A stretch of 4,567 nt of DNA, taken from IMG/VR virus record IMGVR_UViG_2671180473_000005. The stretch is one strand, 5' to 3'. This document shows positions 2,596 through 4,567 of this stretch, one piece after another (positions within the stretch are counted from its first letter, which is position 1; every line of letters starts with the position of its first letter). A program made the position numbers and the translations under genes. The notes under the pieces are model-generated. The model worked only from the letters and a program-made list of their open reading frames with translations. It was not told the DNA's origin and searched no databases. The stretch comes from a virus. Taxonomy: Duplodnaviria > Heunggongvirae > Uroviricota > Caudoviricetes.

Positions 2596-3018
2596 TCACA
2601 GTATCGCCTCCTGAAAATTACCCTGATAGAAAGCCAGTACACGCTGCATAGCTTCGCTCTTCCGGCACTCGCGACAGATTATATTCAGGCGCCTGTCGTA
2701 GCGGCGTATTTCTCCGTCAGGTAATGACCAGATAAGGTCCGGATCAACAACAACCGGTTTCCTCACCTTTACTCTCGAGAGTTTTTTGCGGGCGCTTTGC
2801 CAGTCCTTGCGAGCCTGTTCAGACGGGAATAAGCCGTAGCCAGAATTATATACATCACCACTTGCGACCAGTTCTATGCATAAGCGACCGACAGACGCAC
2901 GACTGATACCTGTTTCATCTGACAACTGCCGAATCGTGACCCGACCGTCCTGATGCACGAGTTCCACAATTCGCGTCTTCAGTTCTTCCCGCTGTTCGGG
3001 AGTAAAAGGTTTCGCCAT
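2596..3018 (-). CDS. winged-helix/HTH DNA-binding protein of the phage replication operon, 140 aa
   Basis: ATG at 3016-3018 with an AGGAGG Shine-Dalgarno 5-6 nt upstream, 14 nt after the DnaC-like stop. N-terminal segment ...VTIRQLSDETGISRASVGRLCIELVASGDVY looks like a helix-turn-helix. Exact family uncertain. Confidence 0.7.
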   Translation of the reverse strand: MAKPFTPEQREELKTRIVELVHQDGRVTIRQLSDETGISRASVGRLCIELVASGDVYNSGYGLFPSEQARKDWQSARKKLSRVKVRKPVVVDPDLIWSLPDGEIRRYDRRLNIICRECRKSEAMQRVLAFYQGNFQEAIL

Positions 3019-3032
3019 AAATCCTCCTGAAA

Positions 3033-3779
3033 CTACTTAACAACCCTCGAATGGCTAACATTCGGACGCCAGCTCTCCCAGTTAAAATTCACCCAGCGCC
3101 CGCCGTTCATGACCATGCGATCCATCACCCGCTCGCCGAGCAATGTTTTCATCACCTCATAGTTCAGGTTTGTCAGCATCCCCACGCTGCGCATCGACGC
3201 TGTCCGGCGATCAACAATCTGGTGCAGCACCACCTGCTCGTTTTTCGTCTCGCGCTGAATGCCAATTTCATCAAGAACCAGCAGATCCACTTCGCACAGC
3301 TCCCGCAAAAATTTTTCGCCTGACTGCCCGTCGTCATAGCTGGCGTGCAGGGCGCTCATAACATCAGCCACGGTAACCACAATCACTGTCTGACCGTCTT
3401 TCAGCAGGCGATTCCCGATAGCTGCCGCTAAGTGATTCTTCCCGGTACCAGGTTTTCCGCTGAACGCAAAATTTGTACACCCGGTCATCAGTTCATCGGC
3501 GATGGATTTCGCCTGGCTTAACGCGTATCGCTGGCCGTCGTTCTGCACCTGGTAATTCGCAAACGAGCATTTACGGTGCAACGGCTGGATGCCTGAGCGA
3601 TTCAGAATTTTTTCCACCCGCAACTGGCGATTCAGGCGGTTGATCTCCTCGCTACGTTTCTGGCCTTCAGCAAGTTGCCACTCGCGCCACTCCGCTACCG
3701 TTCTGAATGGGGCGGTTACATGTGGCGGGGTCAGTCGGCGGATGCGTTCCAGAACGCCGCCTGTCGCAATATTTTTCAT
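3033..3779 (-). CDS. DnaC-family AAA+ helicase loader (phage replication protein, IstB-like ATPase), 248 aa
   Basis: Walker A FSGKPGTGKNHLAAAIG and Walker B DLLVLDEIG are present. ATG at 3777-3779 lies 6 nt downstream of the stop of the initiator C-terminal frame, as expected for a replication operon. Confidence 0.9.
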   Translation of the reverse strand: MKNIATGGVLERIRRLTPPHVTAPFRTVAEWREWQLAEGQKRSEEINRLNRQLRVEKILNRSGIQPLHRKCSFANYQVQNDGQRYALSQAKSIADELMTGCTNFAFSGKPGTGKNHLAAAIGNRLLKDGQTVIVVTVADVMSALHASYDDGQSGEKFLRELCEVDLLVLDEIGIQRETKNEQVVLHQIVDRRTASMRSVGMLTNLNYEVMKTLLGERVMDRMVMNGGRWVNFNWESWRPNVSHSRVVK

Positions 3780-4133
3780 GGTCCGTTACCCCCTGAAGCC
3801 TGGCGGGATCGCACTGTCCGGCAACGAGACGGTGTTAACCTGTCGGAGCAACGTCTCAGGCCGAACACCTTTCGGCGCGAACAGGCCCTGGTATTCATTG
3901 GCGATGCTGTGTCGAATCACCTGCTCAGGTGTAAAACCCTGCTGACGGAATTTTTCCAGTTCCCGTATCGCCCCGTTAGCGCCCTGCTCCGTTCGAATCG
4001 GTTTTCGCAATGCCTGTCTGAACCGGACCCACTCATGCCAGAGTGTTTCCGGCAACCAATCGGGCAGCTCAATAGCCTCCGGCTCGAATTTTTTAGACGC
4101 TCGTTTTTGGCGAGGGGGAGATCAGTATTTAGA

Positions 4134-4154
4134 TCTTCCTCTTCCTCTTCCTCT
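4134..4154. repeat. hexanucleotide tandem repeat (TCTTCC) x3.5
   Basis: tcttcc tcttcc tcttcc tct on the plus strand. On the minus strand it encodes EEEEEE in the linker frame (RGRGRG and RKRKRK in the other two). Confidence 0.9.
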
Positions 4155-4246
4155 GGTAACGCTTTTTGATCCGTTTGTGTAACGCTGGCAGCGTTACCTT
4201 TTCGTTTCAGTTCGCGTATTTTTGTTACTCGCTCGTTTGTAACCGC
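4155..4246. repeat. cluster of dyad-symmetric TGTAACGC/GCGTTACA repeats, candidate replication-origin iterons
   Basis: Perfect 19-bp palindrome GTAACGCTG-G-CAGCGTTAC at 4179-4197; further half-site copies at 4155-4162 (ggtaacgc), 4224-4228 (gttac) and 4238-4246 (tgtaaccgc); motif cgtttgt(g)taac recurs at 4172-4183 and 4234-4243. Confidence 0.4.
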
Positions 4247-4386
4247 CCGTTTTTTTTAGAGCTTTTTCCGTTATGACGTTCAAAGTTAGGTAGAGAAAGC
4301 CCTCCGTCATTTTCGACCAGCCATCCAACCTGAATTAACGCATCAGCAAAACCAGACATAAAAGTGATGCGATCTATTGCACTTTT

Positions 4387-4407
4387 TGTAACGCCGCGAG
4401 CGTTACA
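4387..4407. repeat. second palindromic copy of the TGTAACGC half-site
   Basis: tgtaacgc (4387-4394), 5-nt spacer cgcga, gcgttaca (4400-4407): perfect 8-bp arms, inside the initiator N-terminal coding region. Confidence 0.4.
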
Positions 4408-4462
4408 ATCTGCATTACCGTCTATCATTTGTTGATCCGCCCATGCCCAGAAGCGAATAACC

Positions 4463-4567
4463 TGAGGTAGCCTGAGTTTAACGGACACTCCTTCCTGAAA
4501 TAGAATGGCATCAGAAGGAGCTAATAATGAGCAGAAAAACCCAACGTTACTCTAAAGAGTTCAAAGC
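4463..4567 (+). mobile_element. left end of an IS3-family insertion sequence (IS600-like), partial
   Basis: Sequence begins TGAGGTAGCCTGAGTTTAACGGACAC at about 4463 (IS3-family ends typically start TGA). About 64 nt later a GAAGGAG Shine-Dalgarno and ATG start an OrfA-like gene. The exact boundary is not established. Confidence 0.5.
4527..4567 (+). CDS. IS3-family transposase OrfA, N-terminus only (runs off the window)
   Basis: ATG 4527-4529 with AGGAG 6 nt upstream; translation MSRKTQRYSKEFKA matches the N-terminus of IS600-type OrfA as recalled. Confidence 0.6.
   Translation, partial: MSRKTQRYSKEFK

Follow-up and report, generated by a model that had tools for sequence, protein, structure and literature searches.

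The 4,567-nucleotide stretch of viral DNA analysed here (the window; IMG/VR virus record IMGVR_UViG_2671180473_000005, Caudoviricetes) carries a set of inverted and direct repeats within the remains of a phage replication initiator gene. We read these repeats as what is left of a lambda-style replication origin that lay inside its own initiator gene in a Rac-like lambdoid prophage and that is inactive in this copy, and give this reading a probability of roughly 0.7. The repeats share a single sequence, recur at the same two positions in homologous genes across phyla, and change together with one domain of the protein that the gene encodes.

Two palindromes anchor the set. The one that we call S2 (GTAACGCTG-G-CAGCGTTAC, 4179-4197) is a perfect 19-base-pair (bp) palindrome of the form 9+1+9 and occupies linker codons 122-128 of the initiator gene (GNAASVT). 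The other, S1 (TGTAACGC-CGCGA-GCGTTACA, 4387-4407, with 9-bp arms TTGTAACGC-N5-GCGTTACAA at 4386-4408), occupies codons 53-60 (CNARGVTK). Both follow one 19-bp geometry, GTAACGC-N5-GCGTTAC (7-N5-7), and differ only in the central five bases. They are accompanied by an orphan half-site, GGTAACGCT, on the plus strand at 4155-4163 (AGCGTTACC on the sense strand, encoding A-L-P), which stands directly before a polypurine tract, and by an everted pair of half-sites, GTTAC-N10-GTAAC, at 4224-4243 (GTWAC at gene nucleotides (nt) 322 and 337), which is weaker than S1 and S2. Alignment to intact copies of the gene adds a degenerate half-site, GCATTACC, on the plus strand at 4412-4419, which reads GCGTTACC in O157 relatives. 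The O157 and "phage Rac" copies (L002 and L004) also carry, at gene nt 148-171, a 12-nt duplication (GGTAACGCAGAG / TGTAACGCTCGC) that adds a direct half-site by S1, with GTWAC at gene nt 149 and four extra residues (DCNA/ECNA) in a protein loop; its counterpart in the window is the degenerate form GGTAATGC.

The clustering of these copies is well above chance. With up to one mismatch allowed, TGTAACGC occurs nine times in the window against 2.74 expected, a number reached in none of 200 shuffled sequences, and five of the nine copies fall within 4155-4407. The number of palindromes is unremarkable (93 of 1000 shuffles hold at least two sites with arms of at least 8 bp), and the improbable part is that two palindromes share one arm sequence, for which an analytic estimate gives about 1e-5. 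The original prediction, made from the sequence of the window, had described the perfect palindrome, a second one with the same 8-bp arms and a local cluster of half-sites, all of which are found; what it took to be a different spacer in the second palindrome proved to be a different centre within the geometry of S2. It had placed the whole set in the linker between the two protein domains, which is right for S2 and its neighbours, whereas S1 lies inside the N-terminal domain. A motif count across a genome, proposed there as a check on local enrichment, gives a clear result in vB_EcoS-613R10, a 38.7-kb phage with an initiator 96% identical: 8 of its 12 copies of GTAACGC and all 5 of its copies of TGTAACGC lie inside 480 bp, and the 19-bp dyad (up to two mismatches) occurs three times genome-wide, each time inside those same 480 bp.

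The gene that holds the repeats (3786-4462, minus strand) was delimited by alignment to two intact relatives, L001 and L002 (98% and 93% DNA identity), in which a 262-amino-acid protein annotated "hypothetical" is encoded between ydaT/cII-like and cro-like genes upstream and ydaV directly downstream. The match of this protein to PHROG 2509, "replication initiation protein", spans its whole length (E 1e-89). Searched against Pfam at E up to 1, the intact protein matched zero families, and hence none of phage O N-terminal domain; for nearly all homologues the precomputed Pfam annotation is likewise "-". In E. coli/Shigella copies a third dyad, S0 (TGTAACGCtgcgaGCGTTACA), occupies positions -32 to -12 relative to the ATG, immediately ahead of the Shine-Dalgarno sequence. 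The distance from S0 to S1 is 192 bp and that from S1 to S2 is 207 bp in intact E. coli/Shigella copies; the latter is 209 bp in the window because of a two-base insertion.

The copy in the window carries three lesions. Its first 107 nt, codons 1-36, are missing in the alignment to the intact copies, because the insertion sequence (IS) IS600 was inserted at codon 36 with its junction at 4462/4463; about 105 bases of its left end are present (4463-4567, plus strand). A run of eight T at 4250-4257 (A8 on the sense strand, A6 in the intact copies) causes a +2 frameshift, and a 10-bp deletion with its junction at 4119-4120, between two TCCCCCT repeats, removed TCCCCCTAAA (sense strand) and caused a second frameshift. 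The initiator gene in the window is therefore a pseudogene, and with this gene inactivated in three ways and S0 gone, the origin is a relic that cannot fire alone; S1, S2 and the polypurine tract could act only with an identical initiator supplied in trans. The comparison with phage lambda drawn in the original prediction holds for the layout of sites in an initiator gene, and the decay of that gene had been overlooked.

The order of these losses can partly be followed in related assemblies (comparison loci L281, L284 and L285). Two assemblies share this IS600 insertion and still have S0 and the first 107 nt, 1.3 kb away beyond the IS. In the assembly identical to the window (L284), a stretch of 6 kb contains neither S0 nor the 5' end of the gene, so that a further IS-mediated deletion followed the IS600 insertion. 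A separate copy from Shigella flexneri SFBU1023 (L095) retains an intact 5' end and S0, has a shortened tract (PVEEED vs PEEEEEED) and a frame that ends early (633 nt), so that the initiator gene is decaying independently in different Shigella lineages.

Beyond the window, we compared about 130 homologous genes from E. coli, Pseudomonas, Planctomycetes and Verrucomicrobia. An alignment search of viral contigs with the N-terminal domain returned E. coli loci of 95-100% identity, without diversity, and was set aside; the diversity sample came from a scan of genome contigs with one genome per species, which gave 65 loci ranging over Shigella, Pseudomonas, Achromobacter, Ralstonia, Stieleria (Planctomycetes), Akkermansia and other Verrucomicrobia. 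In nearly all of these loci (about 60 species-level genomes), 7-N5-7 dyads stand at gene nt ~149-167 (S1) and ~346-390 (S2), and their usual sequence is again GTAACGC-N5-GCGTTAC. A second scan was independent of protein similarity, since viral contigs were searched for the dyad alone: it returned 80 loci, 67 of which encode the N-terminal domain, and in those 67 the sites are at -31, ~149-166 or ~344-442 of the initiator gene. The flanking genes differ among lineages, and the initiator gene alone always accompanies the sites. A 70-residue N-terminal core taken from the window found 3,951 cluster representatives at E up to 1e-3 (50% identity clusters), and by this sequence comparison the initiator belongs to a large family that has no Pfam model.

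The conservation of these sites points to selection on the DNA and not on the peptide. Codon counting within a half-site mask that is itself defined by sequence would be circular, and we therefore used only column-based and position-defined arginine tests, the former on a codon alignment of 32 sequences dereplicated below 85% identity. At S1 the codon shares are 97% for GGT (Gly), 97% for AAC (Asn), 84% for GCT (Ala), 100% for AGC (Ser) and 91% for GTT (Val); at S2 they are 100% for GGT, 100% for AAC, 94% for AGC and 96% for GTT; and at the orphan half-site 100% for GCG, 94% for TTA and 79% for CCT, against 30-50% where Gly, Val and Ala are conserved elsewhere. Over site codons (n=12) the top codon has a median share of 0.96, compared with 0.555 over the remaining conserved ones (n=82; Mann-Whitney p = 1.7e-7). 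Even in hosts of high guanine-plus-cytosine (G+C) content, GTT and GGT are nearly fixed at the sites. Moreover, the reading frame across S2 is not constant: 43 genes translate it as G-N-A-x-S-V-T, and 16 use another frame (V-T-L-A-A-L type).

Where the half-site departs from its usual sequence, all copies within one gene change alike, as seen for the types GTTGC, GTCAC and GTCCGC. In L121, from a member of the Planctomycetales, GTTGCGCtccgaGCGCAAC (GTTGCGC..GCGCAAC) stands at both sites, with two further direct copies of GCAAC, and the site peptides have become GCAPSAT and RCAPSAT. GTCAC/GTGAC is used throughout in L146, L151 and a Vibrio phage (L011), and the epsilon15-like type has GTCCGC/GCGGAC half-sites. 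Synonymous fixation, the use of two reading frames and this concerted change strongly indicate that the half-site is a DNA element under selection that tracks the N-terminal domain of the initiator.

The link with that domain can be seen because the protein is modular. When compared with phages by tblastn, it falls into two separable parts, residues 1 to ~137 and ~120-262. ZX5/TL-2011b, a Klebsiella phage, Xanthomonas CP2, a Vibrio phage and Pseudomonas VW-6S have the first, at 45-66% identity, attached to C-terminal parts of other kinds; the second is found with different N-terminal parts in the "gpO homologue" of Gifsy-2 and in further "O" proteins. GTAACGC dyads stand at the same two positions in genes with this N-terminal domain, among them ZX5 and TL-2011b, which combine it with a DnaT-like C-terminal domain, whereas Gifsy-2, with the same C-terminal and a different N-terminal domain, has lambda-like ATCCCCG/TATCCCTG dyads instead. 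Judged from these sequences, the type of site follows the N-terminal and not the C-terminal domain, and the original suggestion that the half-site belongs to the N-terminal domain gains comparative support.

An AlphaFold2 model of the initiator has a mean predicted local distance difference test score (pLDDT) of 68. Its N-terminal domain is modelled with confidence as helices at 16-25, 29-48, 61-68 and 73-80 followed by a beta hairpin at 84-91, looks winged-helix-like, and is compatible with DNA binding, of which it is not proof. A low-confidence linker (96-159), whose codons hold the S2 cluster, leads to a C-terminal domain modelled as three helices (176-225); S1 lies in the N-terminal domain and S0 upstream of the gene. 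The peptide encoded by S1 falls in a modelled loop where pLDDT drops below 50 at residues 54-57, which is consistent with a segment that tolerates residues dictated by the DNA.

The S2 cluster has a constant order across the family. In gene orientation, one to three direct half-sites about 12 bp apart are followed by the S2 dyad, six bases, a final GCGTTACC and, immediately after it, the polypurine tract (C)AGAGAAGAGAAGAGAAGA and short AT-rich DNA. This tract is invariant in every lineage and half-site type (loci L095-L159, gene nt ~400-440). All 50 of its arginine codons are the rare AGA or AGG. In the rest of these genes, many of which come from high-G+C hosts, the figure is 72 of 475, which suggests that the tract too is under selection as DNA. 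In the window it reads GAGGAAGAGGAAGAGGAAGA on the sense strand (4134-4154, minus; a pyrimidine run on the plus strand), encodes EEEEEED and is a candidate unwinding or loading element. The original prediction had pointed to the AT-rich stretch at 4199-4235, and this stretch is indeed moderately AT-rich (40.5% G+C against 50% in the whole window; 4199-4279 has 40%, and the 3' half of the gene 55-60%). In the family comparison, which covered the tract, the conserved element is the one at 4134-4154, and the candidate for opening or loading therefore lies on the opposite side of S2.

These features can be assembled into a working mechanism. Each GTAACGC-N5-GCGTTAC dyad would be bound by a dimer of the initiator N-terminal domain; intact relatives carry three such dyads, S0 (-32), S1 (codons 53-60) and S2 (linker), with extra half-sites around S2. 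We infer that the duplex would open at the polypurine tract of the S2 cluster and the AT-rich DNA behind the last half-site, where the C-terminal domain of the initiator would recruit the DnaC-like protein YdaV together with the host helicase DnaB. S0, which overlaps the 5' leader, may add autoregulation.

Several points weigh against an origin. The sites are dispersed about 200 bp apart, unlike the tandem arrangement in lambda, and since the S1-S2 spacing varies from 197 to 230 bp across the family there is no strict helical phasing. S0 was not found outside the E. coli/Shigella lineage, no DnaA box with up to one mismatch was found in 3780-4460, and the AT-rich character is modest. It is also true that many iteron plasmids use palindromes bound by initiator dimers as operators and not as origins. 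A search for specificity residues in a basic helix RAxTxxRV gave no consistent rule and was dropped, since GTAAC-type genes also carry RALGKxRQ-type helices. In a literature search of incomplete coverage we found no paper on these sites or the tract and no experimental evidence for any member of the family. A paper on the Eru replication units of Stx phages deals with other proteins and mentions neither origins nor repeats.

The likeliest rival explanation is that the dyads are autoregulatory operators only, with initiator dimers sitting on S0, S1 and S2, perhaps looping the DNA between them, and with the origin elsewhere. Rep dimers of iteron plasmids do bind inverted repeats for autorepression, the position of S0 between -32 and -12, just 5' of the Shine-Dalgarno sequence, is apt for such a role in the E. 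coli relatives, and a spacing of about 200 bp would suit looping. Yet S0 is the site that is missing outside E. coli/Shigella, while S1 and S2 are conserved everywhere, and the S2 cluster contains direct half-sites with a 12-bp period and an invariant, selected polypurine/AT-rich tract for which an operator has no need. Repression is moreover compatible with a dual role and does not exclude an origin, and we regard operators alone as unlikely. More doubtful still is that another host or phage factor binds the sites for packaging, partition, recombination at module boundaries, or restriction/modification. The sites do lie at the junction where N- and C-terminal modules have been exchanged, and in Xanthomonas phage CP2 (L165) an additional exact dyad stands 8 kb away from the gene. 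However, the sites stay inside the initiator gene while the flanking genes vary by lineage, the N-terminal domain accompanies the dyads in 67 of the 80 viral loci, and GTAAC and GTCCGC types coexist in the same Enterobacteria hosts, each following its type of N-terminal domain.

The palindromes could alternatively act as hairpins in RNA or single-stranded DNA, in mRNA structure, processing or antisense termination. Each dyad folds stably (z-scores about -3.2 to -3.7), the arms remain complementary when they change, and S2 on the plus strand runs into CTTTTCGTTT (4179-4206), a terminator-like pattern antisense to the initiator gene. S2 as an intrinsic terminator was tried as the main explanation and rejected, with one pattern found against 1.2 expected, no more than shuffled sequences give, and S1 lacking a T run. 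Hairpins in general are very improbable, as a constraint on structure predicts neither the single arm sequence per gene nor its near invariance across phyla, orphan and directly repeated half-sites cannot pair, the 50 distinct one-mismatch sites comprise 2 G-T, 2 A-C and 46 non-wobble mismatches, and the Rfam 15 covariance models gave zero matches over the whole window at gathering score. We attach the least credence to the idea that the symmetry of the DNA is a by-product of a repeated peptide, even if GNAxSVT does appear twice in many members. This is excluded by the other reading frame at 16 S2 sites, by the near fixation of synonymous positions and by the non-coding location of S0; in addition, the S1 peptide is a low-confidence loop, and L121 has C for N and A for V at each of the two sites, exactly as the change of half-site dictates. 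An origin embedded in the initiator gene remains our preferred reading of the repeats.

The nearest precedent is phage lambda, and with it the origins of Stx phages. Lambda iterons are about 19 bp long with dyad symmetry, and the N-terminal domain of the O protein binds them while its C-terminal domain recruits the loader. The origin, ori-lambda, is part of the initiator gene itself, close to where the segments for the N- and C-terminal domains meet (PMC7466680). The system described here resembles it in the dyad sites of about 19 bp inside the initiator gene, the S2 cluster in the linker, the probable recognition by the N-terminal domain, the strand-asymmetric, AT-richer tract behind the sites in gene orientation, and the proposed recruitment of a helicase loader by the C-terminal domain. 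It differs in that the protein is not a member of the O family by sequence (zero Pfam matches), the dyads are perfect and dispersed (-32, +160, +367) in place of four to six tandem iterons, one dyad falls in the gene segment that encodes the DNA-binding domain, there is a conserved polypurine (GAAGA)n tract, and the loader is a DnaC-like AAA+ protein and not lambda P.

Closer in gene content is the Rac prophage of E. coli K-12, for which an active origin, oriJ, has been reported (PMC3945230). The window shares with K-12 YdaU/YdaV the prophage type, the gene order, ydaV and the C-terminal part of the initiator (92-95% identity over that part). The match of K-12 YdaU (YdaU-family/DUF1376) is, however, confined to query 5-344, that is the 3' ~340 nt, with ydaV and the C-terminal part, and a Pfam search did not find the DUF1376 N-terminal domain in the initiator. 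As the N-terminal part of K-12 YdaU has no DNA match to the initiator, different binding sites are expected there, and oriJ is considered here by report only.

Other relatives share one half of the protein. The Gifsy-2 and phi80 gp15-type "O-like" proteins have a C-terminal domain of ~40% identity (residues 120-262), a DnaC-like gene following them and repeats inside the gene, while their N-terminal domain is unrelated and their ATCCCCG/TATCCCTG dyads lie at codons ~159-190. The epsilon15, SPN1S and ZX5 type has a homologous N-terminal domain (66% identity in ZX5, about 28-33% in the epsilon15 type) and the same layout of site cluster and identical polypurine tract, and differs in its DnaT-like C-terminal domain (NCBIfam NF002770, E 2.6e-26 and 3.8e-17). 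In the epsilon15 type the half-sites are GTCCGC/GCGGAC, and most members have no clear dyad at the S1 position; in L159 a dyad stands at gene nt 66-84. The winged-helix Rep proteins of iteron plasmids (pPS10 RepA, F RepE, R6K pi) have no detectable sequence relationship to the initiator, which is further set apart by sites inside the coding sequence, a phage context and a separate helicase loader.

The remainder of the window fits the early-right region of a Rac-like lambdoid prophage, with all genes on the minus strand. Downstream of the initiator remnant is an intact DnaC-like AAA+ helicase-loader gene (3033-3779; Pfam IstB_IS21 1.1e-19, Bac_DnaA 2.5e-8), whose counterpart in relatives is annotated ydaV and whose product is found in many IS-rich NCBI assemblies. 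Next to it are genes for a DUF977 helix-turn-helix protein (2596-3018), a zinc-ribbon open reading frame (ORF; 2182-2595), QueH (epoxyqueuosine reductase, 1390-2034, ending at 2034) and a Hok-type toxin (994-1150, start at 994). A gene pair encoding a Hok-family toxin and QueH, adjacent in the prophage early region, is kept in all related loci examined. A run of 230 N (1160-1389) masks the stretch between the hok-type ORF and QueH; CP146292.2 (L284), an exact match to both non-masked parts of the window, has 259 bp and not 230 between the flanks of this run, and in L281 the corresponding stretch is upstream of the hok-type ORF, where a hok/sok regulatory region is expected. Near the start of the window, a truncated DUF1367 gene (65-460) aligns with profile positions 1-102 out of 198 before running into unrelated residues. 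At this position related assemblies carry a 199-residue gene, or another IS3-family element nearby, and the gene was probably cut by a second IS close to the window start. At the opposite end, BLAST matches annotated as IS3-like element IS600 begin at query 760-764.

For the window alone, the result is an ordinary dead origin in a decaying Shigella/E. coli prophage, and an origin embedded in an initiator gene is a kind of element that is already known. The part worth follow-up is the signature at the level of the family, GTAACGC-N5-GCGTTAC twice about 200 bp apart, then GCGTTACC and the polypurine tract. A wider view, to which we would give a little under even odds, is that the window preserves, in decayed form, a class of phage origin that is very widespread and apparently undescribed, defined by an initiator without a Pfam model (~3,950 representatives at 50% identity), an origin inside the coding sequence, a dyad in the segment for the DNA-binding domain, a half-site array in the linker and a (GAAGA)n tract that is maybe a new unwinding or loading element. 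In such a class specificity would have been switched repeatedly by concerted change of the sites, with the protein sequence following the DNA. The signature would locate the probable origin in thousands of unannotated phages and prophages of Enterobacteria, Pseudomonas, Planctomycetes and Verrucomicrobia, and suggests "replication initiator" as the function of a family whose members are mostly labelled hypothetical. It also provides a clean natural case of overlapping codes for a protein and for DNA sites, in which the natural half-site variants are material for testing how the specificity of initiators evolves.

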